Origin: a virus
Lineage: Duplodnaviria > Caudoviricetes
Length of the DNA stretch: 52,348 nucleotides
Strand: one strand, 5' to 3'
IMG/VR virus record: IMGVR_UViG_3300021197_001620
Span: 1-52,348 of that record
Position 1 is the stretch's first letter, and every line of letters begins with the position of its first letter. Below the pieces are notes generated by a model. It searched no databases and was not told where the DNA came from. It saw nothing but the letters and a program-made list of their open reading frames with translations. This document shows, piece by piece, positions 2,192-43,243 of the stretch. The translations under genes were made by a program, and so were the position numbers.

Positions 2192-2409
2192 TTATCATCC
2201 AAGACTATAATCTTGCCTCTTGCAATTAGTCTTTTGAGAGACTCTTCTGTCATTATGCAAACATCACCATCGGCATACTTTATCTCATAGCTCGTTGTCC
2301 AATTGAACAAAGGTTCCTCTGTCCAAGTTCCTGACTTAATCTCGTTTGTGATTATGCCAAGCTTATCGCTATCAAGAATCATTAGTCCGACTTTAATCCG
2401 AGGTTTCAT
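2188..2409 (-). CDS. KOW/SH3-like microprotein
   Basis: IKVG..I....LGII...YEIKY.DG pattern. Confidence 0.6.
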   Translation of the reverse strand: MKPRIKVGLMILDSDKLGIITNEIKSGTWTEEPLFNWTTSYEIKYADGDVCIMTEESLKRLIARGKIIVLDDK

Positions 2410-3094
2410 CCATCAAAACTCCCAAAATGTATCTACGAGTGTAATTCAAAGTAGGTCCGACACGTACGATGTGAGGGATTAGAACTGGTAGTCCGGTTGG
2501 GGCATCGACAGACACTGCTGACAGTGCACCAACGACCTTTCCTTCTTTGTTAAACACAATTGAGCCAGAAGATCCAGGCCAAGCGAAATTGTTGATAAGT
2601 AAGAATTGACCGTCCATTCCAGAGACTCTTCCATGAAAATTAAGGAACAGTTGATTGTTTGGATTCCCACAGTAGAAAACCTCTTTGCCTATCTCGACAT
2701 ATTTAGAACTACGGTAGTCAATGGCCTCAGTGTACATGAGCTTTCTCTCTGGAACAATGATTGCGATATCTCTAAAGTAATCAATGTGTCTTACTTCTGC
2801 ACCATAGGTAAATCCACTGCGCTCTGTGATGAAGATCTGGTCGACCTTGTCAACAACATGAGCTGCGGTCATTATGAAGTGCTGATCTCGGATTTTGAAG
2901 TAGTTTCCAGACCCTGTTGACACACCACCACCTTCTGATGAAAAAGAATTAATTACAACTGCTGAAGTGTAGGCGTGTTTCATTCCTCTCTCCGCAAAGA
3001 AATAAAGTTCCTTGTGATAAGAAGAGTTAAACTCTATGTGGTTCGGCTGATCTGATGGTAGCATCAGGGCCAGCAACATTGCTAATCGTCCCAT
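2393..3094 (-). CDS. trypsin-like (S1) serine protease with hydrophobic N-terminus
   Basis: Catalytic triad motifs TAAHVV, DIAII, PGSSGS. Confidence 0.9.
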   Translation of the reverse strand: MGRLAMLLALMLPSDQPNHIEFNSSYHKELYFFAERGMKHAYTSAVVINSFSSEGGGVSTGSGNYFKIRDQHFIMTAAHVVDKVDQIFITERSGFTYGAEVRHIDYFRDIAIIVPERKLMYTEAIDYRSSKYVEIGKEVFYCGNPNNQLFLNFHGRVSGMDGQFLLINNFAWPGSSGSIVFNKEGKVVGALSAVSVDAPTGLPVLIPHIVRVGPTLNYTRRYILGVLMDETSD

Positions 3095-4557: not shown

Positions 4558-4741
4558 CTTCCTCCTTAATTATTATAATTGGTACAGTCTTATGATTATA
4601 AATAGTTTTATAATAATTCAATAGCTCCGGTGAGTGGTCGACTGAACAGTATTCAAACTGCTCGCCTTGCTCAATGAGTAGGTTCTTAGCACGAATACAG
4701 AAAGGGCACTCGGACCAGCAAATAATTTTAAAATACTTCAT
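4490..4741 (-). CDS. glutaredoxin
   Basis: CPFC active site, TVP, IGGY. Confidence 0.9.
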   Translation of the reverse strand: MKYFKIICWSECPFCIRAKNLLIEQGEQFEYCSVDHSPELLNYYKTIYNHKTVPIIIIKEEGVDDKLIGGYTQLKQFHERGTP

Positions 4742-5010
4742 CAGCCTTTCAACACCTGTCTCTTGTTTAGCTTGCGTCTCAGCTCATCTGGTGAGCCAAC
4801 TACGACTATTGACCTTGCGCCTGCACCTTCCATAATTGTAATCCTGCTAAAGGTCGCTTCAGGGTTAATTCCCAAACCAATAGCCTCGTTAATCATTGGG
4901 TTTGTTGGCTCTCTCCGAATTGTGGTTACTGCATCTGGTGACACATGAATCTCGTCTAAATGAACTCTCGACCCTTCAGGCTTGAACACTTCGATTAATT
5001 TTATTAACAT
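4741..5010 (-). CDS. FlbD-like small protein
   Basis: Pattern MLIKL...IHVSPDAV..I....SRITI...IVV.GS. Confidence 0.45.
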   Translation of the reverse strand: MLIKLIEVFKPEGSRVHLDEIHVSPDAVTTIRREPTNPMINEAIGLGINPEATFSRITIMEGAGARSIVVVGSPDELRRKLNKRQVLKG

Positions 5011-5500: not shown

Positions 5501-5758
5501 TTATAATAATTCCATAATGGCTTTAGAGGCAAGTCCGACGAAACCTAGACCAACGGTCCAGATAACTCGAGACATGTTCTCCTGCCACTGTTCAAGGTCT
5601 CGAACACGAGCGTAGAGACCAGTCTCAGGATTGTAGATGGCTTCTTTGATCGATTTAACGTCATTGATCATCTCATCCTGCTTGCTATCCATGTGCTTAA
5701 TGTTAACTGTAAGTTCCATTAATGCTTTTTGAATTTCATTCATTTCGTTCTCACTCAT
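5501..5758 (-). CDS. coiled-coil protein with C-terminal TM helix (possible lysis/membrane protein)
   Basis: Heptads, then VIWTVGLGFVGLA; preceded by an ACTATTTA motif. Confidence 0.6.
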   Translation of the reverse strand: MSENEMNEIQKALMELTVNIKHMDSKQDEMINDVKSIKEAIYNPETGLYARVRDLEQWQENMSRVIWTVGLGFVGLASKAIMELL

Positions 5759-5790
5759 GTTCGTTCCCTCCGATATTTACGACATCATTG

Positions 5791-5798
5791 TAAATAGT
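5791..5798 (-). promoter_or_regulatory. putative late promoter ACTATTTA
   Basis: Intergenic copy of a motif that recurs about 20-50 nt upstream of start codons. Confidence 0.55.
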
Positions 5799-5799
5799 T

Positions 5800-7371
5800 T
5801 CAAACTTTCACAATGGCATGTGATGTCGTAAGTAGTGTGCCTGCTGCTGATGCAGCATTTTGCAAAGCACACCTTGTAACTTTCTTTGGATCGATAACGC
5901 CTTGTTCAAAAGCATTTGTCAATTTTCTATTAAGAAAGTCATAGCAAAAGTTATCATCCGAATTAACTATCTTCTCGACAATTAAGTCTTCTGATTCTCC
6001 AGCATTTTTAGCCATCGTTCGCAAAGGCGCCTCACAGGCTCTCAGAACGATTTTAGCACCAAGGGCTTGCTCTTCGTTGTCGGTGTCCACAGAAAGGCTT
6101 CTAGCTAGTCTGAGGAGCGTTACACCACCGCCAACGATGATGCCTTCTTCCTGTGCTGACCTGACTGCTTCCAAGGCATCATCAATACGATGCTTCTTCT
6201 CAATCATCTCAACTTCAGTTGCAGCACCAACTCTAATGACAGCGACTCCAGAGGCAAGACGAGTAATTCTTTCTTGAAGCCTCTCACACTCTTGGAGATT
6301 CTCTGTTTGCTGGATCTCATTCTTGATTGCAGCAATTTGCGTATCAATCTCTTCCCAATCACCTTTACCTCCAACGATGGTTGTCCATCCTTTTGTTACA
6401 TTAATTGACTTTGCTTGACCAAAGTTGTTTAGCTTTACTTCTCGCAAAGACAAGCCTTGTTCTCGAGAAACAAATGTTGCTCCAACTGATGCACAGAGGT
6501 CCTTGAGAATGTTGCGTCGCTCTTCTCCATATCGAGGAGCACGGACAGCAGCGATCTTCATCGTTCCTCGAACCGCGTTCGCAATAAGTGCAGCAAGTGC
6601 CTGACCTTCCACGTCAGATGCAACGATAAGTAAGGGTCTCGAATCTCTCGCAGCGATTTCCAACGTCGGCATAATCTGCTCGACGACTTCAATCTTCTCA
6701 TCTGTAACAAGAATAAGTGGGTTATCATAATCTACTGTTCCGTTTCGTTGGTTGTTTATAAATTGGCTAGAAAGGTAGCCAGAATCAAATCTAAAGCCTT
6801 CTATGAGATCAAGAGTGGTTTGCATGCTACGAGCCTCTTCGACGATTACAGAGCCATCCTTGCCCGCTTTGTCAACTGCTGTTGAGACAAGGGTTCCGAT
6901 TACCGAATCGTTGTTTGCTGAGATTGTTGCAATATGTTTGATATCGTCAACCGTCTCGATTGGTCTCGACAAAGTGTCAAGTTCATCAACGATTACATCA
7001 ACCGCCTTGTTGATGCCTCTTTGCAGCTCGACAGGAGAAACTCCAGATGTCAAGTAGCGTTGTCCTTCGGTCAAGATTGCCCTTGCGAGAACTGTGGATG
7101 TGGTTGTGCCATCGCCGGCTGTCTCCACTGTTTGTTTTGCCGCTTGCTTGATGACTTGCGCTCCAAGGTTTTGGAACGGCCCGTCAAGTTCGATAAAGTC
7201 AGCAATGGTCACTCCGTCCTTTGTGAGAACGGGAGTTCCTTGCTCTTTGTGGAACAACGCCACGGTTCTTCCTCGGGGTCCGAGAGTTGCCGCGACATTA
7301 TCCGCCAAAATGTTGACCCCCTCTACAATCTCTTGATTGAGAGAAGATCCTTGTTTGTAATGTTTTTGCAT
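5800..7371 (-). CDS. groEL: chaperonin GroEL
   Basis: TLGPRGR, TKDGVT, AGDGTTT, GGG and GVIDP motifs; lacks the GGM tail. Confidence 0.97.
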   Translation of the reverse strand: MQKHYKQGSSLNQEIVEGVNILADNVAATLGPRGRTVALFHKEQGTPVLTKDGVTIADFIELDGPFQNLGAQVIKQAAKQTVETAGDGTTTSTVLARAILTEGQRYLTSGVSPVELQRGINKAVDVIVDELDTLSRPIETVDDIKHIATISANNDSVIGTLVSTAVDKAGKDGSVIVEEARSMQTTLDLIEGFRFDSGYLSSQFINNQRNGTVDYDNPLILVTDEKIEVVEQIMPTLEIAARDSRPLLIVASDVEGQALAALIANAVRGTMKIAAVRAPRYGEERRNILKDLCASVGATFVSREQGLSLREVKLNNFGQAKSINVTKGWTTIVGGKGDWEEIDTQIAAIKNEIQQTENLQECERLQERITRLASGVAVIRVGAATEVEMIEKKHRIDDALEAVRSAQEEGIIVGGGVTLLRLARSLSVDTDNEEQALGAKIVLRACEAPLRTMAKNAGESEDLIVEKIVNSDDNFCYDFLNRKLTNAFEQGVIDPKKVTRCALQNAASAAGTLLTTSHAIVKV

Positions 7372-7402
7372 AAAGCCTCCAATGGTTATTTGTTATGTCT
7401 AT

Positions 7403-7431
7403 ATTATAACCGCTTTTGGAGGCTTTGTCAA
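7403..7431 (-). promoter_or_regulatory. sigma70-type promoter (groEL)
   Basis: TTGACA-N17-TATAAT, perfect consensus. Confidence 0.9.
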
Positions 7432-7432
7432 G

Positions 7433-9223
7433 TTATTTTTTAAAGTTTTCTTCGATTAATTTCTTGAGCATGGATTCAGTGACAGTTGCCGCTTTATCTT
7501 TCGCCCAAGTCTTGGACCAATTCATTTTCTTATATTCGTCTTGAGCAAAAGATTCAATGAAACCTCCAAGGTTTGACTTGATCTCATCATAGCCAGAAAT
7601 TAGAGAGTCTGCTGTTTTCATCTGATCTCGAACATTTGTAGATTGTGTGTAATTTACAGCTTCCACTTCAAGCTTTTTTGCATTTGAAAAAATTACTTTA
7701 GAAAGGTCAAGAGCTTCTGATGCTACATTCTCGTAAGATTTAGACAATAGAGAGTCCATTGTTCTTATTTGCTCTTGTTCGGCTAAGTCATCCACAACAG
7801 GGATTGTTCCAACTTTAAACAAGCCTCTGTTCAAAGCCATGGCTTTTCCTACTAAAAGATTTCCATCGTCATGTTGAAACACTTGAATTTTAGTTCTCTT
7901 TCCATTTTTATCGAGAAGATAGAAAACATCTTGATCATTTCTAGTAATTCTACTTACTCCGCAAATATAGACGGCTACGGATGATGTTTTTTGAGAGTCA
8001 TCTTTTATTCCACAAAAATAAAAAATTGTGTTAGCATCTGCCGTGTCTGCCCAAACGCCCTTACCATCCAATGATCGTTTTCCTATTTTTTGCTTTACCC
8101 CATCTAGACTAGAGTATAGCTTTTGAGAAGTAAAGATTTTCTGACTATCTGAATCATAAAGAAAGACATCACTAGCGCCTGCATCGCCTCCTACAACTTT
8201 GCCGGAAAATAGCATTGCTGAAAACGCTTCAAAAAACTTACCAGCTTCCATTGCTGATATCTCAGCAATTACCATGGAAAAGTATTTCAAAATCATACCA
8301 GCGGAAATTATCATTCCCGGATCTTTCTTTGCAATTGACTGAAGAGATTCGATAGCCTCAGAGTCTCCATTTGCAGAATCTTTGATCAAATTTGAAAATG
8401 AAATTAACTTTTTTGTTATTTGATCGGCTGTTTTTGCATCTGATTTAAATTTATTAAAAACAGATAAGGTAGCCGATGGGATTTTTCCAAATGTTCTGGA
8501 TGGTTCGAATGTGCTTTCTAGTGGCAAGTCTATGGAAGGAACGGTTACATCTGATTCATCAAAAGAGTTGAAGATTTTATTTAAATCAATAAGTTCATCA
8601 GCAGTGAGTGATTTATCTGCTGTCTTGTTTTTTAGCCATCTTTTAAATGCTGCTCTTACACTTTCAACTCTTTCATTGTCCCCAAGTGCTTGAGCTTCCT
8701 GTCTTGCAGCAATGAACATTAGAAGTGAGTGTTTTGGATTTTGTTTTAGGATTCTTTTGCCAAGAACTCGTTGGTCGACCATTAATTTGAATTTATGCCT
8801 CTTAGTACTGTTGCTTATGTCAGTTTTTGAAGGATTTGCAGGAAGAGCGGGAACATAAGTGTTATAATTTGATTTCTCATAAGCTTGTAGAATTTTGCTT
8901 TGAACTTCTGCTTGGTGTTTGGAGTAATAATAAATTTTTAATGCAGACTCAGCTCTCTTTACGTTCTCATCGGAGCTCCAGTCAGTTTCGTTAAAAACCG
9001 CCTCAAAATCCACTTTATCTAATTCATTGGCTTCTGGCTGTTGCGATGCGATTGATTTTATCGTTGCCATGGGAGTTGATGAGCGACCGCCATGAGGGAT
9101 TCCTAATTCATCTTTCACAGCATTGTCATCTTTAGTTTCAATGTCGGTAACTGGTAAGCCCTTTTCATTTAAAACCTGCTCAACCAAACCTTTCAACATT
9201 GATTCTGTTATCTTTTTGCTCAT
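7433..9223 (-). CDS. tagged protein with a putative PD-(D/E)xK nuclease-like domain
   Basis: N-terminal KITESMLKGLVEQ is repeated at the C-terminus as VTESMLKKLIEE; internal G.FFE.F....G.....SD......SQKL. Confidence 0.55.
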   Translation of the reverse strand: MSKKITESMLKGLVEQVLNEKGLPVTDIETKDDNAVKDELGIPHGGRSSTPMATIKSIASQQPEANELDKVDFEAVFNETDWSSDENVKRAESALKIYYYSKHQAEVQSKILQAYEKSNYNTYVPALPANPSKTDISNSTKRHKFKLMVDQRVLGKRILKQNPKHSLLMFIAARQEAQALGDNERVESVRAAFKRWLKNKTADKSLTADELIDLNKIFNSFDESDVTVPSIDLPLESTFEPSRTFGKIPSATLSVFNKFKSDAKTADQITKKLISFSNLIKDSANGDSEAIESLQSIAKKDPGMIISAGMILKYFSMVIAEISAMEAGKFFEAFSAMLFSGKVVGGDAGASDVFLYDSDSQKIFTSQKLYSSLDGVKQKIGKRSLDGKGVWADTADANTIFYFCGIKDDSQKTSSVAVYICGVSRITRNDQDVFYLLDKNGKRTKIQVFQHDDGNLLVGKAMALNRGLFKVGTIPVVDDLAEQEQIRTMDSLLSKSYENVASEALDLSKVIFSNAKKLEVEAVNYTQSTNVRDQMKTADSLISGYDEIKSNLGGFIESFAQDEYKKMNWSKTWAKDKAATVTESMLKKLIEENFKK

Positions 9224-9224
9224 T

Positions 9225-10112
9225 CTAAATCTCCTTTAACAATTCTTTCAAATCTAAACCAGCGCAATCGATCTTGCGGTTGGTCAAATGGTAGTGGCTC
9301 ACAAAGCCCTCAAATTTGCCACTAGCGGCCTTTTTGCTCACAGTGGTGTTTGTAGACTTTGACCTGTCCAAAGGTGCCTTAAGAGGGATCCCTGTGGCTC
9401 TATTCACTGCTTTCGCAAGAGCCTGAAAGGCTTTTAGTTGTTCTGGGTAAAAACCCGTGAATGGCTTTAATCTTTTTCCATGGACTATTGCATCATCAAT
9501 GATTGGTCTCTCGCCTAATCCTTGCTTAACATACCAATCTTGATGCTTTGGATAGTAAGCGTTGGAAATCTCAACTCCGATAGATTTATTGTTCCATGTT
9601 CTAGATCCTGCGTGATAGGCAACGTCGTTGATGTCCATTGTTTGATAAATGGTTCCATCATTGTCAATCAAGAAGTGAACAGATAGTCCACGATTTTGAA
9701 GAACCTTGAAGCACGACTTAGAAGAAAGACAGACATCCCAGTGACAAACGAAAAAACTTGGCTCTCTCTTCTCGAACACTCGGCGGAAACCTTTGCGCTG
9801 CTTGAACCCATCGGACTCAAACCAAAGATTGACTTTCGGCCACTCGATGTCGAAGTACTCCGAATTATAGACAATGAAAGAGTCACTGTTGTTCTTCGTG
9901 CTTGGCATGAATGTTTCTATCTTTTCTTGCCTATCTGTGTAGATTCTCCGGTAAGTGCCGGGGCCACAAAGTCCATCAGCGGTTAGGCCTTTGGACTTCT
10001 GATATTCAACAATAGCTTCGATGAGATCATCATTAAACCTATTGCACTTAAACCACGAAGGCTCCCAACCCAATTTCTGGGCTGAGGCTTCGTTATAGAA
10101 ATACTTATCCAT
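9225..10112 (-). CDS. endolysin: peptidoglycan-binding domain plus N-acetylmuramoyl-L-alanine amidase
   Basis: YQ...GL.ADG.CGPGT; CHWD, SVHFLID, AYHAG, SIGVEI, SH motifs. Confidence 0.9.
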   Translation of the reverse strand: MDKYFYNEASAQKLGWEPSWFKCNRFNDDLIEAIVEYQKSKGLTADGLCGPGTYRRIYTDRQEKIETFMPSTKNNSDSFIVYNSEYFDIEWPKVNLWFESDGFKQRKGFRRVFEKREPSFFVCHWDVCLSSKSCFKVLQNRGLSVHFLIDNDGTIYQTMDINDVAYHAGSRTWNNKSIGVEISNAYYPKHQDWYVKQGLGERPIIDDAIVHGKRLKPFTGFYPEQLKAFQALAKAVNRATGIPLKAPLDRSKSTNTTVSKKAASGKFEGFVSHYHLTNRKIDCAGLDLKELLKEI

Positions 10113-10115
10113 TTG

Positions 10116-10835
10116 CTACTCCAAAATTTCGTCAACAAGTCCTTTCTCGATTGCTTCTTCAGCAGTCAAATAGACGTTTACTTTACGATTAATTAGTGTT
10201 TGGATCTGTCTTTTCGTCATATTTGTTTCATGACTCATTGCTTGAATGTAAGAGTCTTGCAGTCCAACGGTCTGCTCGAGTTCATTCTGCAGATTGTGAA
10301 TGTCTCCAACTTGTCCGCCGTTTACTGCATGGATCATAACACGACAGTGTTTTCCAATCTTGCGCTTGCCCTTGGTTCCCGATGCTAGCATCAAAGTTCC
10401 AGCGGACATGACCTTTCCAAGACCAATTGTCTCGATGTCGCAAAACTTCTTGCAGAAGTTGATAACATCATAGATTCCGAACATCTCATCTGCAGATCCG
10501 CCATATGTCGAAACATAAAGTTTGATTGGCTCTGCTCGTTCTGCGTCGGGGTCTTTTGTTTGAGATAAAACCAACAAAGCAGAGATCAAATCTGCTGCAC
10601 GGTCTTCGTTGACTTCTCCAACAAACATAATTGAGCGTGCTTCGGGGCTTTGTGCTCCACCTGCTCCACCACCAAGGAGATCCATCAACGTAAGTTGTTG
10701 ACCCTCTTCTTCTTCTACCACCTCTTCAGGAGCTTCTGATTCTTCTGACTCTTCTGATGAAGATTCTTCTTCAGAGATCTCTTCCTCTTCGACTTTCTTT
10801 TTAGACTTTCGTGTTTTTTTGCTTAGATTTCGCAT
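10116..10835 (-). CDS. clpP: ClpP-family protease with acidic N-terminal extension
   Basis: STYGGS, GKVMSAG (Ser), MIH (His), YLTAEEA..GLVD. Confidence 0.9.
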   Translation of the reverse strand: MRNLSKKTRKSKKKVEEEEISEEESSSEESEESEAPEEVVEEEEGQQLTLMDLLGGGAGGAQSPEARSIMFVGEVNEDRAADLISALLVLSQTKDPDAERAEPIKLYVSTYGGSADEMFGIYDVINFCKKFCDIETIGLGKVMSAGTLMLASGTKGKRKIGKHCRVMIHAVNGGQVGDIHNLQNELEQTVGLQDSYIQAMSHETNMTKRQIQTLINRKVNVYLTAEEAIEKGLVDEILE

Positions 10836-11196
10836 GTTTTCTCCTAAATTGTTGTGTTACAAAGAGCTTTAATTGCTCAAAGTTTTTATATCTTATAATG
10901 TTAGTGTGCTCTGTTGGGATATGTTTCATGATCTCTGAGATCTTCCTATCTGCGAATGATTTAAACTCATTGCTGTGCAGTTTTCTCAAGTTGTCCGCTT
11001 CTGATCCTTGAATCTTGTTTGCCACTATTGTGTGTTCCAGTTGTTGCAAGCTGACTTCGTAAGCGCTCATCAACAACAAAGCATGTGTAAGCATTGCGTT
11101 TTCAAGGATTTCAGAAGAGCGAATTGTTGACGAAATAATTGTCACAAGATAAGTTAGAATCGAACCAATCGCTAAAGATAAAACAATATTCAACAT
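10801..11196 (-). CDS. membrane-anchored hypothetical protein
   Basis: Hydrophobic N-terminus; GGAGG SD before ATG 11196. Confidence 0.65.
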   Translation of the reverse strand: MLNIVLSLAIGSILTYLVTIISSTIRSSEILENAMLTHALLLMSAYEVSLQQLEHTIVANKIQGSEADNLRKLHSNEFKSFADRKISEIMKHIPTEHTNIIRYKNFEQLKLFVTQQFRRKHAKSKQKNTKV

Positions 11197-11211
11197 AGCA
11201 TTCCCTCCACT

Positions 11212-11240
11212 AAAAAAAAGAGAGGACAAAGCCTCTCTTT
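11212..11240 (-). terminator. intrinsic terminator after the haloperoxidase
   Basis: AAAGAGAGG-cuuugu-CCUCUCUUU plus U-run. Confidence 0.85.
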
Positions 11241-11241
11241 A

Positions 11242-11270
11242 ATTATAACATCAAACCAAAGGTTTGTCAA
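11242..11270 (-). promoter_or_regulatory. sigma70-type promoter
   Basis: TTGACA-N17-TATAAT. Confidence 0.85.
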
Positions 11271-11279
11271 GTATTTTGA

Positions 11280-12827
11280 TTAAACTTTTATTTCAGTGCC
11301 ATCAAAACCAATGATTGTGATCTCGGTGATTGTCTCATGTTGAGTGTCGCGATGATCCTTGAACCATTGAATAGCGATTTTTTCTCCCAACAACAAACCA
11401 TTGTCTCCATCTGATCGATAGTGTACACCGGCGATGTTACGACCGATTGACATGTTGGAAGCCAACTTGTTTAACTCTCCATGGATAGTTAAGTCACCTG
11501 CATCTGCTTCAGCATAGGCAACCAAAGATCCTCCATTCAGCGAGTGAACAGGAGACAAGCCAGTTGTGGACCAAGCAGCATCTGCGAAGTAAAGTTTCAA
11601 GATTGTTGCGCAAGCACCAGCAATCGTAGCGTGACCAGCAGGATAAGATGGATGAGTTGGCGAGCCTTCTGCATATTGAATAGGCAACCAAGCTTTGTTG
11701 TCTCCACCTGCGGCAACATTCGCGGCCTTAACAGCATTCAAGGTTGAAGCACCAAGAGCGAATAAATCTGAATGGACTGTCCCAGAAGGAAGCGCACCTT
11801 CTGCCTCTTTGACGACTCGACCAGCCATGGCTTCAGGTCGAAGCTTTAAGTGCTTCTTCCATTTTTGAACCCATGCAGCTTTCAGAGCAGGGCGAGAAAC
11901 TTCAGCAACTGCGGCAGCAATCTCAGCAGCACCACCACCGGTTACAAAAGGAACTTCTTTTGCAAGAGAAGGGAATGCAGCATGTCGAGCAGCACCATTT
12001 CCAAGAAGAATTGCAGCACCATACAAAAATGCTTGATAGACAAAGTCAATGTGCACAAACGATCCAAGTTGACGGCCATTATAGATGTATCTAGGAGCTG
12101 AACTAATTGTCTGTGCGACAGGGACGTTACCCTCTTGGATAGACAACCAGTTTGACTCTGTAATTCCATAGACTCCTGTTTTGGTCGGTCCAACCTGAAC
12201 GATTGTCTGGTTTCCAAAAGGAACATCCAATAACATAAACTGACTTACATAAGGACCGACGAGTTCTCCAGCACCTTTACCTCGGAACAAAGTTTGGCGA
12301 GTTACAAATCCTCCATCTTTGGGTCCAGTAAAGTCATCACCAAAAGCGTTGAGGTTTGCAACTGCCCTGTCAGCGCCGGTGATAGAGGCTGATCCGTTTA
12401 ATTCGTGAAACGGGATATCACGAAGAAGATTTTTTTCGTAAACCTCAACCATTTCAGCAGCAGCGACTCTAGAGTTCATTGCTGGTGCTTTATCAAAGCT
12501 TACACCTTCAGGGTCTGCTCCAGACAACTCGATTGAAAGAGCTGCTTGAGGGCTTACTTGTTTTCGAACGCCTGCTTGATCAAGGGCGTCAAAATAGCTT
12601 TGTTCTCCAGTTTCGAGTCCAAGAATCAAAGTTGTAATAGAAGAAAGTTCAGCGACACCAGTTACTAGGTCGTGAGTCATTCCTTTTGCATAAAGAGCCG
12701 CAGTGTTTAGGTTCACCAAATCGTCACTTTTGATCTGATCAGGGTCAACATCGCGGGATCTGAATGCTGCTTGCAAGCCTCTTGTATCTCGAATTACTTG
12801 CGGTATGTTTTTTATAAATTTTTTCAT
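11280..12827 (-). CDS. vanadium-dependent haloperoxidase (bromo/iodoperoxidase-like)
   Basis: QKW..H..LRPEA, AEGSPTHPSYPAGHA and GELNKLA.N..IGRN.AGVHY.SD vanadate-binding motifs; 515 aa. Confidence 0.92.
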   Translation of the reverse strand: MKKFIKNIPQVIRDTRGLQAAFRSRDVDPDQIKSDDLVNLNTAALYAKGMTHDLVTGVAELSSITTLILGLETGEQSYFDALDQAGVRKQVSPQAALSIELSGADPEGVSFDKAPAMNSRVAAAEMVEVYEKNLLRDIPFHELNGSASITGADRAVANLNAFGDDFTGPKDGGFVTRQTLFRGKGAGELVGPYVSQFMLLDVPFGNQTIVQVGPTKTGVYGITESNWLSIQEGNVPVAQTISSAPRYIYNGRQLGSFVHIDFVYQAFLYGAAILLGNGAARHAAFPSLAKEVPFVTGGGAAEIAAAVAEVSRPALKAAWVQKWKKHLKLRPEAMAGRVVKEAEGALPSGTVHSDLFALGASTLNAVKAANVAAGGDNKAWLPIQYAEGSPTHPSYPAGHATIAGACATILKLYFADAAWSTTGLSPVHSLNGGSLVAYAEADAGDLTIHGELNKLASNMSIGRNIAGVHYRSDGDNGLLLGEKIAIQWFKDHRDTQHETITEITIIGFDGTEIKV

Positions 12828-12838
12828 TTTATCTCCAT

Positions 12839-12865
12839 AAAAAAATGGAGGGCCTTGCCCTCCAT
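12839..12865 (-). terminator. intrinsic terminator
   Basis: AUGGAGGGC-aag-GCCCUCCAU plus U-run, directly before the haloperoxidase RBS. Confidence 0.85.
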
Positions 12866-12894
12866 CGAATTGTTATTGATTGAATGTCAGAATT

Positions 12895-13422
12895 TTACTT
12901 ACGACGACCCAATGCTTTGTTTAATTTTGCTTCATGCAACTTGGCAGTCTTAAGACGACGAGCGACACGTTGAGCAACTTCATTTACAATCTCGCTTTGA
13001 GAAGGTTCATAAGAAACTCCTCGCAAGGCTTCCATGATGTCAGACTCAAGATCTGCATCTTCCTCTTCTTCACCAGCCATAGGCTCCATGTCATCCATGG
13101 CTCCCATCTCTTCTTCTCCTTCTCCAGCATCACCGGGAAGGATTTGATTCAACAAGTCCAATGCACTTTCCAGACCTGCTTTCGCATCTTGGATTTCTGA
13201 CTCTGGTACTTCTGCCATTGCATCGCCCATTTCATCGTCCATTGGTGCTTCAGCATCAAGATCAGCATCTGCTTCACCTTCAGGTGCGCCCATGTCGTCA
13301 CCAGCAGGAGCCATATCGGCTTCTACTTCTTCTTCGTTCATGTACATTTCATTGATTGGAGCAACATTCGCCAATTTCTGGAATCGTCGAACAACTGCTT
13401 CGTTTAAAGTTTTTTTAGCCAT
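12895..13422 (-). CDS. acidic low-complexity protein, likely head scaffold/core-like
   Basis: D/E/M/A-rich disordered core between basic helices (LNEAVVRRF / VNEVAQRVARRL); CTATTTA upstream. Confidence 0.6.
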   Translation of the reverse strand: MAKKTLNEAVVRRFQKLANVAPINEMYMNEEEVEADMAPAGDDMGAPEGEADADLDAEAPMDDEMGDAMAEVPESEIQDAKAGLESALDLLNQILPGDAGEGEEEMGAMDDMEPMAGEEEEDADLESDIMEALRGVSYEPSQSEIVNEVAQRVARRLKTAKLHEAKLNKALGRRK

Positions 13423-13459
13423 AATTTGGTCTCCTTAAAATAAAAAACGTTTTTCCCTT

Positions 13460-13466
13460 TAAATAG
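13460..13466 (-). promoter_or_regulatory. putative late promoter CTATTTA
   Basis: Intergenic copy of the motif. Confidence 0.5.
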
Positions 13467-13497
13467 GTGGGCAAACCATAAAAAGACATCCTGAAAC

Positions 13498-13827
13498 CTA
13501 AATTTCGGGATGATCTTCTTCAATAATGTCAAAAATGTCTTCGATATCATCACCAGACAATCCAAGCTCGTGGAGCATTTCATCGGCAACTTCTCTATCT
13601 TTTTTTGCAGCCTTAACAGATTTCTTTGAATGTTTCTCGCTGTGTTCTTTGTAGAAGTCGATGAACTGATCCATAATTGGATTTTCAGATAGGACACCAT
13701 CAGCACAAACACGAACAAACTCAGACATGCTCATGCGATGAAAGTCTAGTTTGACCTTTAGGTCCATGTGTTGCTTTTCATCCATATAGATGTAGATTCG
13801 TTTAACCGTGTTTTTCTTCTCAGACAT
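13498..13827 (-). CDS. ribbon-helix-helix-like DNA-binding protein
   Basis: KRIYIYMDE..H..LK.......SMSEFVR pattern. Confidence 0.6.
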   Translation of the reverse strand: MSEKKNTVKRIYIYMDEKQHMDLKVKLDFHRMSMSEFVRVCADGVLSENPIMDQFIDFYKEHSEKHSKKSVKAAKKDREVADEMLHELGLSGDDIEDIFDIIEEDHPEI

Positions 13828-13828
13828 T

Positions 13829-14257
13829 TTATTTTCCTGTGCTTCCATAGCCGCCAAAGCCACGCTCTGTTGGTGTTAGCTTATCAGCCTCAACAAAGTC
13901 AATTCTTGGGTAAGGCATAATAACTAGTTGACCGACTCGATCTCCAATTTCATATTCCTTTGCGTAAGGCGATAACGTGTATTTCAACATAATCTCGCCT
14001 CGATAACCTGAATCAATAACTCCCACGCAGTTCGTAAGAGTCTGTCCGGTCTTGTAAACCGACGACCTAGGGAACAACAAGGCAACATGCCAAGGTGGAA
14101 GCTCGATGGCAAGACCAGTCTTGTAGGTCAACGTGCCACCGTCAGCAACAACACCAACTGCAGTCAGGTCAAGCCCAGCATCGCCGGGCTTAGCATATTG
14201 TGGAATGATGGCATCAGGATGTAGTTTCTTAATCTTGACTTTCAACATCTTCCTCAC
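13829..14257 (-). CDS. dut: trimeric dUTPase
   Basis: AGLDL, PRSS, GVIDSGYRGE, GDRVGQL, RGFGGYGSTG. Confidence 0.97.
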   Translation of the reverse strand: MRKMLKVKIKKLHPDAIIPQYAKPGDAGLDLTAVGVVADGGTLTYKTGLAIELPPWHVALLFPRSSVYKTGQTLTNCVGVIDSGYRGEIMLKYTLSPYAKEYEIGDRVGQLVIMPYPRIDFVEADKLTPTERGFGGYGSTGK

Positions 14258-15260: not shown

Positions 15261-15289
15261 ATTATAACATGTTAAAGTTCATCTGTCAA
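15261..15289 (-). promoter_or_regulatory. sigma70-type promoter
   Basis: TTGACA-N17-TATAAT within the 3' end of the MTase gene. Confidence 0.85.
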
Positions 15290-18739: not shown

Positions 18740-18970
18740 TTAGTACTTTATTCCATCAATGATAATTTCTTCGGGTTCTCGACAATATTGATCCCAAATC
18801 CACTGCCTTATTGATTCTATTGGAGCGAAGGTGAAAAGCAGGGCTTGGCGCCCTGTCTCATACTCGCAAACTATATCTTCGATGTCTGGGCGATAAAATG
18901 AGATAAACGACATGTTATCACATCCTGGTGCCCAGAACACCGTTACATCAATTCTTTCTGGCATGCTCAC
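18740..18970 (-). CDS. hypothetical protein
   Basis: Probable GTGA coupling to the dnaE stop; start uncertain. Confidence 0.5.
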   Translation of the reverse strand: MSMPERIDVTVFWAPGCDNMSFISFYRPDIEDIVCEYETGRQALLFTFAPIESIRQWIWDQYCREPEEIIIDGIKY

Positions 18971-21900
18971 CCCAATAGTTTCCAGTTTCTTGATAATCCA
19001 CCTTTTGTGGAGAAGCCCCAAGTGGCGTTGAATGTCGGCCACTCCAAGACATAAAGTCTGTGAGGATAAATGAAGTCCGCCTCTGGGTTGACACCCCAGC
19101 AATTGATCTTTTGAGTCTTCATGCTTGAGTCAATAACCATGACTTGATAGTAGAACTTACCAGTCTTCGTCTTGCGTGTGGTGACTTCCGTTGGGATGCA
19201 CCATGCTTTACCGAGTTCTCGATCATATTCCGACAATGGATTGATGCCTTGCAACTCAAAGAATCTATAAGCCTTTACTGGAACAACCATGTTGATTGGA
19301 TAGATGCCCGTCAACGCTTGCAAGTGATTGATTGTCTCAGCCTTTGTGAAAGAGCCTTCGTCTTTATATTTCTCAATGTTCTCTCGAAGCTTTTTCTTGT
19401 TCTTCGGCTTGTCAACAACAACGGCAGACCAGAAGTGTTTGTCTCCAAAGAAACGTTCATCCATCAAGGATTCCATCGCTCCGGCTCGACACATTGCGTC
19501 TAACGACTTTTTATTGACTTTCCGTGCAACTACCCCTTTGTCAAACAAAAGGTCCTCTACGGACGAAAATGGGCGTTTAAAGATGACTTCATCAATTGCT
19601 GCTTCACCAAGACCTTTGATGGTTGTCAGAGGAGGAACAAGTCTTCCACCTCGCACTTCCCATGCTGTGCCTGACGTGTTAATGTCTAGAGCAGCAACCT
19701 TGTAGCCAAATGATCGAGCAATGTTGATAGCGGCTTCTTTGCGCTTGTCAGGTTCGTGGTCAAGGAATGAAGAGATCCATTCGTCTTGATAGTAAGTCTG
19801 CATCCATGCACATTGATAAGAGATGATGGAATAAGGAATAGCGTGGTTCTTTGAGAAGCCGTAGCCAGAGAAGTACTCCATCTTGCCCCAAAGCACCTTT
19901 GCATCAGCAAAAGACATTCCTTTCTTCTCGCAACCTTTAACGAAGCGTTCGTAAAGATCTTTCTTCTTCTTCATCTTTGTTCCAGACAAACCTTTCTTTG
20001 TCAACAACTTACGAAGCACATTTGCATCCGACATGGTAATCTTGTCACCAAGGGTGTTGACCAAGTTCATAATGTCTTCTTGAAACACGATAAGCCCATA
20101 GGTCTTACCGAGTACTTCTTCGATGATTGGATGGTCATAGTCAATCTCTTCGGTTCCATGCTTTGCTTTCACATACATCTTGTCAACATTCGCAGACAAA
20201 GGACCGGGACGATAGATAGCAGACACAGTGGCAATCTCTTCAATCGAGTTTACCTTTGCGTTTGTTCCAAGTCGTTGCATGCCAGAGTTCATGAACTGGA
20301 AGATGCCAGCATATTTGCCTTCGTGGAAGACTTCACGATAAACTCTCTCGTCTTTCATGTCGAGCTTTGATGGATGGAGATTGTCCATATACCATTGCTT
20401 GCATTGTTCGAATGTTGGCTCGCGAACTCCCTCTTTCTTTAAGATGCGCATAATCGCATCCTCGAAGGTCTTAAGAGTCTCGAGACCAAGAATATCAAAC
20501 TTGATGAAACCAAGAGGTTCGAGGTGACGAACGTTCATTCCTTCGGCCCAAGGTGTCTGACGAGTTCCCTTTGAGGTAATAAGAGGCATCTTGCTTGGAA
20601 GATAGTCTCCGATGATAGCACCAGCAGCATGTCGACCGATAGATCGCGGTGAACCAACAAGTCCAAAGACCTGCTCTTTCACATGCGGATAATTTCTAAA
20701 GAACTGTTGTAGTGTCTCGGAAAAGTCACAGACCTCTTGAAAGGTTGGAGTATAAACACCAGCCTTGATGCCGTGCTTCTTCTTTGCTTTCGGCGTTGCT
20801 TCAACAAACATGGCCTTCGTTACCTTGTTCACTTCGGTAAAGTCGATGCCTTCACGCTTCGAGATGTCTTTGATTAGAGATGAGAGTTGAAGAGTGTTGT
20901 AGTTCGAGATGAACGCAACAGAGTCTTCACCCCACTCTTCAACCATCTTGTCTTTGATAAGAGAGTTGTCTCCGAAGTCAATGTCGATGTCTGGAAAGCC
21001 ATCAGAGCCACGAGTAAGGAAACGTTCGAAAGGAAGATTCCATTCCATAGGATCAATCTGTGTAATCTTCAGGAGGAAAGCCAATAGAGAACCTGCTGCA
21101 GATCCGCGAGCAGGACCGACAAATGTGTAGTTCCAAGAGAAATCAGTGATTGCTTTTGTTGCAAGAAAATATTCAGAGAATTTTTGAGAAGCAATGACAT
21201 CGAGTTCTTCCTCTAATCTTTTTCGATAGTGTCGTTTCTTAGTCTTGTCAGACCCTCGCAAGTAGAGACGTAAAGCTTCGTCAGCGAGTTCTTTGAGAGC
21301 TTCGTCAGCGCTTTTGTCGCTTGGAACCATAAAAGAAGGAAGCTGCACAGAAGTATCAGGAAGAAAATCTTCAATCTGCTCGAAAGCGATGGTGGCTGTG
21401 TTGGTGATTGACTCCATAACGAGATCATCGCTATAGACATGGTCACCATCATCAGAGTATCGTTTATATGATTCCCACATTTCGTGAGCGTTCTTTGGAT
21501 AAAGTTCATAGCCGATCTCCTCTACTGATTCAGGGATGTTGTCATCCATCCACGCAGGCATTTTACCCAACCAACCTAAACGCTTGTAAACTTCTCTATC
21601 TTTCCATGATGTTGGAGTTGGATAGTGAGAGTCGCATGTCGAGATAAGTTTGATGTCGAGTTTCTGTGCTACTTTAATTAGACATTTGTTCAATAGATGT
21701 TGCTCTGGAATGTTGTTCCATTGCAATTCAGCATAGAATCTATCTCCAAAGGTGTCTCGGAACTTTGTGAGATTGGCCAGCATGTCGTCGACAATCGCAT
21801 CCTCGCCCTCTTCTTGGTGTTTCCACATAGAACCAGCAGCAATGCCACCAAGACACGCTGTGGCTACAATAACGCCCTCTTGATGCTTCTTTAGAAGATC

Positions 21901-22389
21901 CCAGTCGATACGTGGTTTCCGATAGAAGTAGTCTCCAGTGTATGACTTGGAAACCATCTCGTAGATATTCTCGAGACCTTTCTGATTTTGTGCGAGAAGA
22001 ATAATGTGACGCTTACGTCCAAGTGCTCTCTTGTCGTTGCGTTGCTCATCCTCGACAACCATGGCCGAGTCTGACTTGTCAATCTCTTTTGCCTTCTTCT
22101 TGTCTGCAGCCATCTCATTGCGAAGAGTTTGCCACTCTTCAAGAGAGTCGATGTAGTAAGCCTCAACGCCAAAGATTGGCTTGAAGTCTTTGCCTTCCGC
22201 TTTCATTTCTTTTGCGCGTAGTAATTGATAGGATAGACCATTCATGCTTCCATGATCGGTTAAGGCCAATGCTCGAGATCCATTCTCGTGTGCGAAATCC
22301 ATGTGCTCCTGTGGGAAGCCAAAGCCGTCGAATAGGCTGAAGCACGAGTGACCGTGCAAGTTTACAAATTGTTCTTTTCTTAATTCCAT
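18967..22389 (-). CDS. dnaE: DNA polymerase III alpha subunit (family C)
   Basis: PHP domain HGHS..S.FDG/TDHG; RGSAAGS, FERF, PDIDID, KFDILGL, RPGP, YGFSKNHA; start moved to MELRK. Confidence 0.97.
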   Translation of the reverse strand: MELRKEQFVNLHGHSCFSLFDGFGFPQEHMDFAHENGSRALALTDHGSMNGLSYQLLRAKEMKAEGKDFKPIFGVEAYYIDSLEEWQTLRNEMAADKKKAKEIDKSDSAMVVEDEQRNDKRALGRKRHIILLAQNQKGLENIYEMVSKSYTGDYFYRKPRIDWDLLKKHQEGVIVATACLGGIAAGSMWKHQEEGEDAIVDDMLANLTKFRDTFGDRFYAELQWNNIPEQHLLNKCLIKVAQKLDIKLISTCDSHYPTPTSWKDREVYKRLGWLGKMPAWMDDNIPESVEEIGYELYPKNAHEMWESYKRYSDDGDHVYSDDLVMESITNTATIAFEQIEDFLPDTSVQLPSFMVPSDKSADEALKELADEALRLYLRGSDKTKKRHYRKRLEEELDVIASQKFSEYFLATKAITDFSWNYTFVGPARGSAAGSLLAFLLKITQIDPMEWNLPFERFLTRGSDGFPDIDIDFGDNSLIKDKMVEEWGEDSVAFISNYNTLQLSSLIKDISKREGIDFTEVNKVTKAMFVEATPKAKKKHGIKAGVYTPTFQEVCDFSETLQQFFRNYPHVKEQVFGLVGSPRSIGRHAAGAIIGDYLPSKMPLITSKGTRQTPWAEGMNVRHLEPLGFIKFDILGLETLKTFEDAIMRILKKEGVREPTFEQCKQWYMDNLHPSKLDMKDERVYREVFHEGKYAGIFQFMNSGMQRLGTNAKVNSIEEIATVSAIYRPGPLSANVDKMYVKAKHGTEEIDYDHPIIEEVLGKTYGLIVFQEDIMNLVNTLGDKITMSDANVLRKLLTKKGLSGTKMKKKKDLYERFVKGCEKKGMSFADAKVLWGKMEYFSGYGFSKNHAIPYSIISYQCAWMQTYYQDEWISSFLDHEPDKRKEAAINIARSFGYKVAALDINTSGTAWEVRGGRLVPPLTTIKGLGEAAIDEVIFKRPFSSVEDLLFDKGVVARKVNKKSLDAMCRAGAMESLMDERFFGDKHFWSAVVVDKPKNKKKLRENIEKYKDEGSFTKAETINHLQALTGIYPINMVVPVKAYRFFELQGINPLSEYDRELGKAWCIPTEVTTRKTKTGKFYYQVMVIDSSMKTQKINCWGVNPEADFIYPHRLYVLEWPTFNATWGFSTKGGLSRNWKLLG

Positions 22390-22418
22390 ATGTCCTCCAA
22401 GACTTGTGTGATGTTTAT

Positions 22419-22447
22419 AATGTAACACGGCATGCTTTCTTTGTCAA
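22419..22447 (-). promoter_or_regulatory. sigma70-type promoter (dnaE)
   Basis: TTGACA-N17-TACATT. Confidence 0.8.
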
Positions 22448-38783: not shown

Positions 38784-39389
38784 CTACTCCTGTAAGTTTA
38801 TATCTAGTTTTATGTTGATTTCAAGTTTTGGCATGCCGATGTGGTCAGCAAGTCCAAGACGCATTGCTTCATCGCAATCAACAAACAAATCTGCACGTCC
38901 TTTCTTGTTCAGCTTCTTTTCAAACCATGCTTCGCTCTTCTTCGAATTATCTGCGAGGATCTCGTAGATTCTGTCGTTTAAGCGTTGAGTTTCTTCGGCT
39001 GAAGCTTGGATCTCGGAGTTTTTACCCCAAGAACCACTGCTAACATCATGGATCATCAGAGTTGCATCTTCTGTGATGTAGCGATAGCCTTTTGTGCCAC
39101 AAGAGAAGAGGATGACTCCGCAACTCATGGCTTTTCCTTCAACAATTGTCGCAATAGGCAATTCAGAATTTCTAATCGAAGCAAGCATGCTCATTAGAGA
39201 GTAGACTTGACCTCCATAAGAGTCGATTATAACCGGTATAACTGATTGACCTGTATTATGTGCCTGTGCAACTTTGTTAGCAAAATCTTTTGCCGAGTTT
39301 TCATCGAATTTGTTGACACGAATAATCACAGGATTATTTCGCAATTCGACGTTTTTGATATTACTATCAACTTTTGTTTTCCACAACAT
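38784..39389 (-). CDS. clpP: second ClpP-family protease
   Basis: DSYGG, GKAMSCG, MIHD, D......EA..LGLAD. Confidence 0.9.
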   Translation of the reverse strand: MLWKTKVDSNIKNVELRNNPVIIRVNKFDENSAKDFANKVAQAHNTGQSVIPVIIDSYGGQVYSLMSMLASIRNSELPIATIVEGKAMSCGVILFSCGTKGYRYITEDATLMIHDVSSGSWGKNSEIQASAEETQRLNDRIYEILADNSKKSEAWFEKKLNKKGRADLFVDCDEAMRLGLADHIGMPKLEINIKLDINLQE

Positions 39390-43068: not shown

Positions 43069-43243
43069 TTATCTTCCTCACTTCGCTCGGCCAAAAGGGG
43101 ACTTCTGCACCGTCGCTCATCATGACCCAGTAAATGACATAGGTAATTCCAACTTTCTCAATCTTCACGACCAAACCAACGTCTCCATTGTCGTATCCTG
43201 ATGTTTGTGGTCCAACTAGAGTCACCAAGTCGCCTGCTACCAT
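43055..43243 (-). CDS. KOW/SH3-like microprotein
   Basis: MVAGDLV...GDVGLV....YWV.MSDG. Confidence 0.7.
   Translation of the reverse strand: MVAGDLVTLVGPQTSGYDNGDVGLVVKIEKVGITYVIYWVMMSDGAEVPFWPSEVRKISEEG

Follow-up and report, generated by a model that had tools for sequence, protein, structure and literature searches.

Vanadium haloperoxidases are regarded as a major oceanic source of reactive bromine, iodine, and volatile halocarbons, and this activity is attributed to algae, cyanobacteria, and some bacteria. In these enzymes, vanadate on the histidine of the third of three sequence motifs binds H2O2 and oxidizes bromide and iodide, and less readily chloride, to hypohalous acid (HOBr, HOI, and perhaps slowly HOCl). 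The hypohalous acid leaves the site and halogenates or oxidizes nearby molecules; without an acceptor, a second H2O2 is consumed. Here, we analyze a gene of this family on viral DNA. It lies at positions 11280–12827 on the minus strand of a linear IMG/VR virus record of 52,348 bp (IMGVR_UViG_3300021197_001620; this whole stretch is called the window). Judging from homology, motifs, and gene order, it very probably encodes a bromoperoxidase-type enzyme and belongs to the accessory genes of a phage.

The closest described relatives of the predicted protein (P0001, 515 aa) are the algal and cyanobacterial vanadium bromoperoxidases (V-BPOs), such as those of Corallina officinalis (PDB entry 1QHB), C. 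pilulifera (1UP8), Acaryochloris marina (5LPC), and Ascophyllum nodosum (1QI9), with which it has near full-length homology and the same vanadate-binding residues. P0001 differs from them in its shorter chain (the V-BPOs have 556–666 aa), in the absence of several insertions, and in its location in a phage accessory cassette. Our literature search, conducted mostly at the level of listings and abstracts, found no virus-encoded vanadium haloperoxidase, and the only viral halogenase mentioned there was VirX1, a flavin-dependent enzyme of cyanophage Syn10 that the available text presents as the first virus halogenase characterized (PMC8407142). Both proteins are encoded by marine phages, and VirX1 is a halogenating enzyme, as P0001 is predicted to be. 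However, VirX1 has an unrelated fold and performs substrate-bound, regioselective iodination with flavin adenine dinucleotide (FAD) and O2, whereas P0001 would use vanadate and H2O2 and release a diffusible hypohalous acid. The kind of enzyme is thus already known; new are its viral, leaderless clade and its behavior as a cassette. Promoter-early stem-loop (PeSL) cassettes, described in the available text of two papers as mediating insertions and deletions in T4-type phages (PMC2839356; PMC4122927), are the closest described counterpart of the latter.

A full-length protein with a complete vanadate site

The gene is an ATG-started open reading frame (ORF) and, like all large ORFs of the window, lies on the minus strand. 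A Shine–Dalgarno sequence, GGAG (12833–12836, −), stands 6 nt before the start codon and is kept in four metagenomic relatives introduced below (L080–L082 and L084). When the PDB was searched with P0001 using phmmer, ten distinct sequences were matched, all of them vanadium bromoperoxidases (E-values 3.9e-52 to 3.8e-44), with C. officinalis 1qhb (3.9e-52) and A. marina 5lpc (8.5e-51) as the best matches; A. nodosum 1qi9 aligned to query residues 87–491 at 6.1e-49. A profile built from 34 members of the viral clade of P0001 matched the solved V-BPOs over near full length at E-values of 6.3e-80 to 1.2e-64, with profile positions 32–515 aligned to the Corallina enzyme and positions 39–511 to residues 47–527 of the 556-aa Ascophyllum enzyme. 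As the profile aligns with V-BPOs nearly end to end, P0001 is full length.

The initial annotation had proposed a full-length enzyme with all three vanadate-site motifs in bromoperoxidase form, and every motif residue is indeed in place. Motif 1 reads K322-x7-R330-P331 and aligns to the K...RP of 1qhb and 5lpc; motif 2 is H392-PSYP-A397-G398-H399; and motif 3, R463-x5-H469, aligns to the R...GVH of every matched structure. These residues and W319 are invariant in all rows of the two viral clades described below (37/37 in clade A and 12/12 in clade B). Of the motif residues, H469 presumably holds the vanadate, while K322, R330, R463, G398, and H399 would hold and polarize its oxygens; these individual roles are those of the classical literature on the Curvularia inaequalis enzyme. 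The extra histidine of motif 2, in the form H-x4-(S)GH, is typical of bromoperoxidases. The position usually taken by serine in this motif is alanine in P0001 (A397), as it also is in Acaryochloris 5lpc in the PDB alignment. The Acaryochloris enzyme (AmVHPO) is an active bromoperoxidase, and its active-site lysine is Lys428, according to the available text of the source (PMC11871015).

The same text discusses the residue three positions before this lysine as one that bears on specificity. It is an arginine in the Acaryochloris and Corallina enzymes and a tryptophan in those of A. nodosum and C. inaequalis, which chlorinate, and W319 of P0001 falls at this position (PMC11871015, as far as its available text goes). 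We considered reading a halide preference from W319 and rejected it, because the R425W substitution brought no gain in chlorination in AmVHPO and the effect is enzyme-dependent (same source).

Cellular homologues of the same subfamily, bacterial and archaeal, occur in GTDB metagenome-assembled genomes (MAGs) of Verrucomicrobiota, Lysobacterales, Acidobacteriota, Bacteroidota, Halobacteria, and others. They have the same catalytic columns, including those of W319, H392, and A397, the last of which holds alanine in 47 of the 54 tree rows outside the two viral clades (mostly rows from GTDB genomes). They differ from P0001 in being at most 43% identical to it, in forming separate clades, and in that 36 of 48 begin with an extra stretch of about 100 aa that includes a hydrophobic segment.

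Several points would fit another assignment, in which P0001 is an acid or phospholipid phosphatase of the PAP2 type, as JGI naming has it, and not a haloperoxidase. The two families have common catalytic residues, so that a phosphatase role is compatible with the sequence, and they have the C-terminal core of three motifs in common. Pfam support for P0001 as a haloperoxidase is thin. The sole local match is PAP2 (residues 387–490, 5.3e-06, 26.7 bits against a cut-off of 27.2), and the helical-bundle domain VCPO_2nd comes only from a precomputed table, which lists PF22778.4 for P0001 and for the 119 other best-listed relatives; the local PF22778.2 gave no match at E ≤ 0.001. A search of NCBIfam gave nothing meaningful. 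Members of the cluster also carry the label “membrane-associated phospholipid phosphatase” in their source databases. Against this, the PAP2 match lies below the gathering score and covers those residues only, whereas the 515-aa chain aligns throughout to V-BPOs, N-terminal helical part included. PAP2 phosphatases are short and often membrane-bound, while P0001 is predicted to be a soluble two-domain protein aligned lengthwise to haloperoxidases, with no hydrophobic or membrane segment in the N-terminal region tested, and both H392 and W319 sit at positions discussed for haloperoxidases. We therefore consider a phosphatase improbable and assign P0001, on sequence grounds, to the vanadium haloperoxidase family as a predicted bromoperoxidase-type protein with a complete vanadate site.

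A genuine phage gene

The gene had been described as embedded among phage genes, and this is borne out by its same-strand neighbors. They include GroEL, an Amidase_2 endolysin, two Clp-protease-like genes, dUTPase, thymidylate synthase, the alpha subunit of DNA polymerase III (Pol III alpha), ribonucleotide reductase, DnaB, an exonuclease, a UvsX-like recombinase, a gp32-like protein, and a tape-measure-like protein. CheckV estimates the completeness of the record at 29%. The haloperoxidase gene has a GC content of 0.452 and a third-position GC content of 0.326, inside the range of the other window genes (0.29 to 0.56 at third positions), and the same family of promoters is found on either side of it.

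A scan of metagenome contigs recovered six relatives of the gene (L080–L085). L080, L081, and L082 each give a single alignment with the window, from about 13040–13100 to about 9170–9205, which spans both junctions of the gene with its surroundings; L083 and L084 span one junction each, downstream and upstream, respectively. Nucleotide identity across L080–L084 is 74–81%, and L085 matches inside the gene only (64%). Contigs from public marine runs of three studies also bridge both junctions, the upstream one in runs X2 (12773–12987), X3 (12696–12908), and X7 (12680–12981), and the downstream one in X1 (11221–12757) and X2 (11221–11704).

These data bear on whether the gene could be an artifact, either of chimeric assembly or of host DNA on a viral contig. 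Hairpins flank the gene, De Bruijn contigs break at 11221–11250, and close relatives without the gene exist, all of which an artifact would explain. On the other side, five independent marine assemblies are collinear across the junctions, with the gene in the same place, so that it is no chimera; run contigs of three studies bridge these junctions, phage promoters stand on both sides, and none of 50 homologous loci found in GTDB genomes exceeds 43% identity. The probability of an artifact is practically negligible. The contig represents a real phage, and the haloperoxidase gene is a genuine part of it.

An accessory insertion with an empty site in relatives

Relatives of the phage were also fetched through the DNA polymerase gene, 6 kb upstream, which yielded 23 loci. 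Eight of these reach the block dUTPase–orf121–acidic ORF–(small membrane protein)–ClpP–amidase: L087, L091, L096, L102, and L103, with polymerases 82–88% identical to that of the window, and L088–L090, at about 57%. The haloperoxidase gene is absent from all eight, and likewise from four more distant polymerase-fetched loci that reach ClpP. In L091, homology ends at 12895, where the acidic ORF stops, and resumes at 11282, at the haloperoxidase stop codon, and L102, L103, L096, and L087 show the same break. Because the break falls at the same place in these relatives, the inserted segment is defined as 11283–12894 (−, 1.6 kb), consisting of a hairpin spacer, the ribosome-binding site, and the ORF.

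In a tree of the polymerase C-terminus (15 rows), the window groups with the non-carrier L087 and with L104 (SH-aLRT support 97), and the carriers L083 and L084 pair with each other elsewhere (99), such that carriers are not monophyletic. This patchy distribution therefore points to gain, loss, or exchange of the gene. The contig of L103 measures 183,930 bp, which agrees with the genome size implied by CheckV. The haloperoxidase gene is thus an accessory insertion within a marine phage lineage of roughly 180 kb, in which some members carry it and others do not. The initial annotation had called it a rare auxiliary gene; auxiliary it is, and its rarity is taken up below.

A 5.6-kb contig of run X3 (record 15), of higher depth, joins position 11273 to position 13342 with 451 unrelated bases between them. 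Its flanks measure only 53 and 82 nt and are about 90% alike, which makes it weak evidence; it probably derives from a co-occurring relative without the cassette.

Two virus-associated clades of predicted haloperoxidases

A word-indexed protein search, in which 8000 candidates were scored and relatives defined at E ≤ 1e-3, returned 2115 proteins; the best 119 besides the query are 50–89% identical to it and 409–537 aa long. When 1.84 billion representatives were searched exhaustively, 2684 proteins passed E ≤ 1e-3 and 823 reached E ≤ 1e-30. In IMG/VR, a profile-seeded scan found 28 loci with relatives. A scan of viral contigs seeded with the single protein gave 38 pattern matches and no relative, and an alignment-based scan was needed. 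The profile-seeded scan of one genome for each of 185,579 species in GTDB found 50 loci, the best at 43% identity. One clade member is recorded on 181 contigs, the longest of 271 kb. With 28 viral loci, the best 119 listed relatives at 50–89% identity, and a member on 181 contigs, the gene is not rare.

The view that no phage example had been characterized or annotated has held up: PHROGs contained no matching family for P0001, INPHARED (50,697 phage records) gave no match, although records very near the window may lie outside that search, and the listings and abstracts of the literature search named none. The source labels of clade members are “membrane-associated phospholipid phosphatase” or “hypothetical protein”.

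The phylogenetic and viral-database comparisons suggested by the initial annotation resolved two virus-associated clades. In a FastTree phylogeny of 103 rows, from which two fragments shorter than 400 aa and four identical duplicates were left out, clade A (support 100) unites the query with 11 viral contigs and 25 metagenome proteins and includes none of the 48 genome rows, while clade B (support 98) comprises 9 viral contigs and 3 metagenome proteins. An IQ-TREE analysis under LG+G4 (78 rows, with 29 long, truncated, or near-duplicate rows dropped and four metagenome loci added) recovered clade A (32 rows) with support 100 and clade B (11 rows) with 97. Under the LG+C20 mixture (56 rows, quick search), the values were 99 for clade A (23 rows) and 92 for clade B (9 rows). 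Clade A is thus strongly supported throughout (99–100) and contains viral contigs and metagenome proteins only; a point against taking it as exclusively viral is that this composition rests on a pattern-seeded genome scan and, for 25 of its members, on metagenome proteins judged apart from their contigs. A single viral origin of clades A and B is not claimed, as support for their union was 100 under LG+G4 and 31 under LG+C20.

Members of clade A reside on at least three unrelated large-phage backbones. In L004, TerL, the portal, the major head protein (MCP), and an internal virion protein stand in an operon around the gene. The portal of L011 is 52% identical to that of the Pseudomonas jumbo phage PA5oct; L002 encodes an RNA ligase of the T4 type and a helicase with 46% identity to that of an uncultured 462-kb phage; and L005 encodes a minor tail protein. 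In L006 and L011, the haloperoxidase gene adjoins YadA-stalk or PKD proteins. Besides the haloperoxidase, the only ORFs that clade-A contigs have in common with the window are two in L002 and one in L009, the latter a weak ClpP-like match. The nearest cluster in the ESM Atlas (83 members) has Uroviricota as its commonest phylum, which serves as a lead only.

Clade B (loci within L012–L026) includes contigs named GVMAG (26–35% GC) and three high-GC contigs (58–62%). Judged by the contig names, giant viruses possibly carry clade-B haloperoxidases. One of the high-GC records, L014, has 618,736 bp and is rated 92% complete; a search of it for capsid proteins of nucleocytoplasmic large DNA viruses gave no match, and the control was likewise without a match. 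Among the cellular loci, the Haloarchaeobius genome L053 contains two tandem haloperoxidase paralogues (5689–7425 and 7591–9393), both with hydrophobic leaders.

Loss of the export leader and purifying selection

The initial annotation had noted no obvious signal peptide, and in the first 44 residues of P0001 the best 11-residue Kyte–Doolittle window indeed scores only 0.02. With naive gene-start calls and this simple score in place of a dedicated signal predictor, no row of clade A (0/37) or clade B (0/12) had an 11-residue window of at least 1.5, compared with 36 of the 48 genome rows; the respective counts for a loose twin-arginine pattern were 0, 1, and 35. The stretch before the conserved core has a median length of 44 polar residues in clade A, compared with a median of 107 in the 54 rows outside the viral clades. 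The viral enzymes thus appear to have lost the export leader that most of their cellular homologues possess.

Comparison with the L080–L083 orthologues gave 0.08–0.13 nonsynonymous differences per nonsynonymous site (pN) and 0.62–0.72 synonymous differences per synonymous site (pS), hence a pN/pS of about 0.13–0.2; the ratio of substitution rates (dN/dS) is about 0.06, with dS saturated. The reading frame is intact in the window and in L080–L083. The phage haloperoxidase gene is under purifying selection. A decaying passenger gene without current function could be dispensable in the way seen here, with relatives that do without it, and could lack a dedicated promoter as the window copy does. 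The intact frame, the dN/dS of about 0.06, the invariance of the catalytic residues in 37 clade members, and the retention of the ribosome-binding site and upstream hairpin argue the opposite, and we consider such decay very improbable.

Transcription signals around the gene

The two bracketing terminators that had been proposed are both present as hairpins on the gene strand, each followed by a T-run. The upstream hairpin (12844–12866, −), a 10-bp stem followed by T7, follows the stop of the acidic ORF and precedes the ribosome-binding site of the haloperoxidase gene. Its folding energy is −17 kcal/mol (z = −4.40; 0 of 200 shuffles as stable). The stem shows compensatory changes, with GGAGGGC/GCCCTCC in the window and GGAGAACC/GGTTCTCC in L080 and L081; a related stem occurs in L082 and L084, and run contigs show a change in the loop only. 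The downstream hairpin with T8 (11217–11240, −; −11.4 kcal/mol; z = −3.65; 1 of 200 shuffles as stable) has a compensatory stem variant in L083 and abuts a promoter, which makes it a composite terminator/promoter. This promoter (11242–11270, −) is a perfect 12/12 sigma70 match, TTGACA-17-TATAAT with a TG element, and stands directly after the haloperoxidase stop, where it would serve the transcription of the genes that follow, those for the membrane protein, ClpP, and the amidase. The composite of promoter and stem-loop is kept at the empty site of relatives. An Rfam search over 10500–14000 at E ≤ 0.1 found no family, and no RNA data set was listed as containing the stretch.

In the window as a whole, four perfect sigma70 sites are found where 0.00 are expected, and sites with at least 11 of 12 matches number 14 on the gene strand against two on the other. 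The 14 near-consensus promoters (all −) lie at 44162, 42253, 41081, 40927, 40376, 37433, 36020, 31841, 24944, 18732, 17173, 15289, 11270, and 7431. They have the form AAATACTTGACAA-N14-TGTTATAWT, mostly with an extended −10 element, and strong GGAGG ribosome-binding sites stand alongside. The phage seems to rely on host sigma70 throughout the 52-kb region. Such use of canonical promoters fits a host that has canonical promoters itself rather than a member of the Bacteroidota. As to further clues on the host, searches with the polymerase, GroEL, helicase, and portal matched distant isolates only, and no tRNA was found in the window.

The earlier statement that no sigma70 promoter had been noticed is correct for the 67-nt spacer upstream of the gene, which contains none, and misses the perfect site directly after its stop. 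As the spacer is without a promoter, transcription of the window copy would have to pass through the upstream hairpin, either from the nearest upstream near-consensus promoter (15261–15289, −) or from a candidate element at 13457–13468 (−). The candidate is a conserved 12-mer ahead of the acidic ORF, ACCTATTTAAAG, which L080 and L083 retain unchanged and L084 retains at 11 of 12 positions, in a spacer that otherwise diverges. The initial annotation had placed a late promoter at 13460 as the source of the read-through. The conservation of the 12-mer in three relatives speaks for an element there, and three further observations leave the late promoter an unproven candidate: the CTATTTA motif shows no significant enrichment (the window has 10 copies, all of them on the gene strand and four in intergenic gaps, and 7 of 100 shuffles reach this number), the ordinary promoters of this phage are near-consensus sigma70 sites, and L083 has one directly before its orthologue. 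The intergenic copies of CTATTTA lie at 4599, 5791, 13460, and 32679 (−), 24–45 nt upstream of start codons, and CTATTTA may be a phage-specific promoter element.

In L083, a copy of the sigma70 promoter and stem-loop stands directly upstream of the orthologue, so that two such cassettes flank the gene (at about 4815–4908 and 6454–6550). As direct repeats, they could allow the gene to be excised or transferred by recombination. The arrangement resembles PeSL cassettes in that a strong sigma70-like promoter with a terminator stem-loop marks the boundary of an indel between close relatives, with two of them flanking the gene in L083. It differs in that the phage is not T4-like by its polymerase, that recombination is only inferred, and that a stem-loop follows just one of the 14 strong window promoters, the site at 11270–11242; PeSL as a genome-wide feature of the phage is rejected on this count. 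Compared with a moron-like unit, which has its own promoter and terminator, the gene has hairpins on both sides; the spacer of the window copy contains no promoter, and the L083 copy has a sigma70 promoter directly upstream.

Proposed site and time of action

Within the window, the gene is followed by a small protein with an N-terminal hydrophobic helix (in the 9225–11229 block, −, with a likely start near 11196), a Clp protease (10116–10835, −), and an Amidase_2 endolysin (9225–10112, −). It is preceded by an acidic 175-aa ORF without a family match (12895–13422, −), whose stop codon forms the upstream edge of the insertion. Taken together, the data somewhat favor a genuine phage V-bromoperoxidase, encoded by an accessory gene and acting late or extracellularly. 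The late component of this reading, namely action once the envelope is breached or after release into the lysate, is on its own slightly more doubtful than probable; it is suggested by the leader loss of the viral enzymes and by the endolysin, structural, or fiber-like genes that adjoin the gene. Of the candidate roles listed in the initial annotation (peroxide removal, quorum quenching, halogenation, and halocarbon production), a plain cytoplasmic sink for peroxide would fit these two features less well.

In sea water, bromide is present at about 0.8 mM and vanadate at tens of nM, and phosphate is scarce. Outside the cell, the enzyme would find vanadate and halide, unlike in the cytoplasm, which is reducing and rich in phosphate. 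It would convert peroxide and bromide or iodide to reactive halogen at a late stage of infection or following lysis. A more general version, in which leaderless enzymes from several tailed-phage lineages, and possibly from giant viruses, are released at lysis or carried on particles and make HOBr or HOI extracellularly, appears unlikely at present.

Some observations pull away from late, extracellular action. Read plainly, an absent leader means a cytoplasmic enzyme, and the late or extracellular reading rests on position and relatives. The promoter of the L083 gene is of the sigma70 type that replication genes also have, and this is no sign of strictly late timing. Finally, in L008 (5637–6767) and L009 (8686–9882), which represent one phage lineage, it is an IMPDH/GMP-reductase-like gene, and not a structural gene, that directly precedes the haloperoxidase gene. 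This gene belongs to phrog_9582, and the L009 copy matches Pfam IMPDH at 1.2e-67.

The same enzyme could accordingly act inside the cell, where a leaderless cytoplasmic form would remove H2O2 as a halide-dependent pseudocatalase, or halogenate or oxidize host or phage molecules during replication. The absence of an export signal, the standard sigma70 promoter of the L083 copy, the IMPDH/GMP-reductase-like gene ahead of the gene in L008 and L009, and the location of the window gene directly after a block of nucleotide-metabolism and replication genes all agree with this. However, the hydrophobic leaders (36/48) and twin-arginine-like motifs (35/48) of cellular homologues suggest that the chemistry is normally extracytoplasmic. 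In the cytoplasm, moreover, phosphate competes with vanadate, cells reduce vanadate, and hypohalous acid is toxic, and the scanned window proteins include no further oxidative-stress gene. An intracellular role is therefore possible but rather unlikely, and late or extracellular action is the reading that we prefer.

Further features of the region

Between the amidase and GroEL genes lies a 596-aa ORF (7433–9223, −) without a family match, which fails to align in L080, L082, and L083 and has no clear match in the polymerase-fetched relatives (one weak match of 26%, in L090). It looks like a second variable slot of the region.

The window encodes an unusual proteostasis set on the minus strand, with Clp-protease-like genes at 10116–10835 and 38784–39389, GroEL at 5800–7371, and a trypsin-like peptidase at 2393–3094. 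The PHROGs label “head maturation protease” may hold for only one of the ClpP copies. In addition to the Pol III alpha-type polymerase (18967–22428, −), a 395-aa ORF (43237–44424, −) gave a weak match to family-A polymerases (32.1 bits, below the cut-off).

Implications

A distinct, conserved set of vanadium haloperoxidases is present on viral DNA, on at least three unrelated large-phage backbones, with a related set on contigs named as giant-virus MAGs, and the viral copies have been hidden behind the labels “phospholipid phosphatase” and “hypothetical”. The compact natural variants of about 515 aa may be of interest for biocatalysis. If the enzymes are active, viruses would have to be counted in marine halogen chemistry, and infection would gain a diffusible oxidant as a tool. 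If the more general version is true, in which such enzymes make HOBr or HOI outside the cell, its possible effects include the destruction of acyl-homoserine lactones, oxidative attack on surface polymers or competitors, and the production of volatile halocarbons, and viral lysis would be an unrecognized biological source of reactive halogen in the sea.

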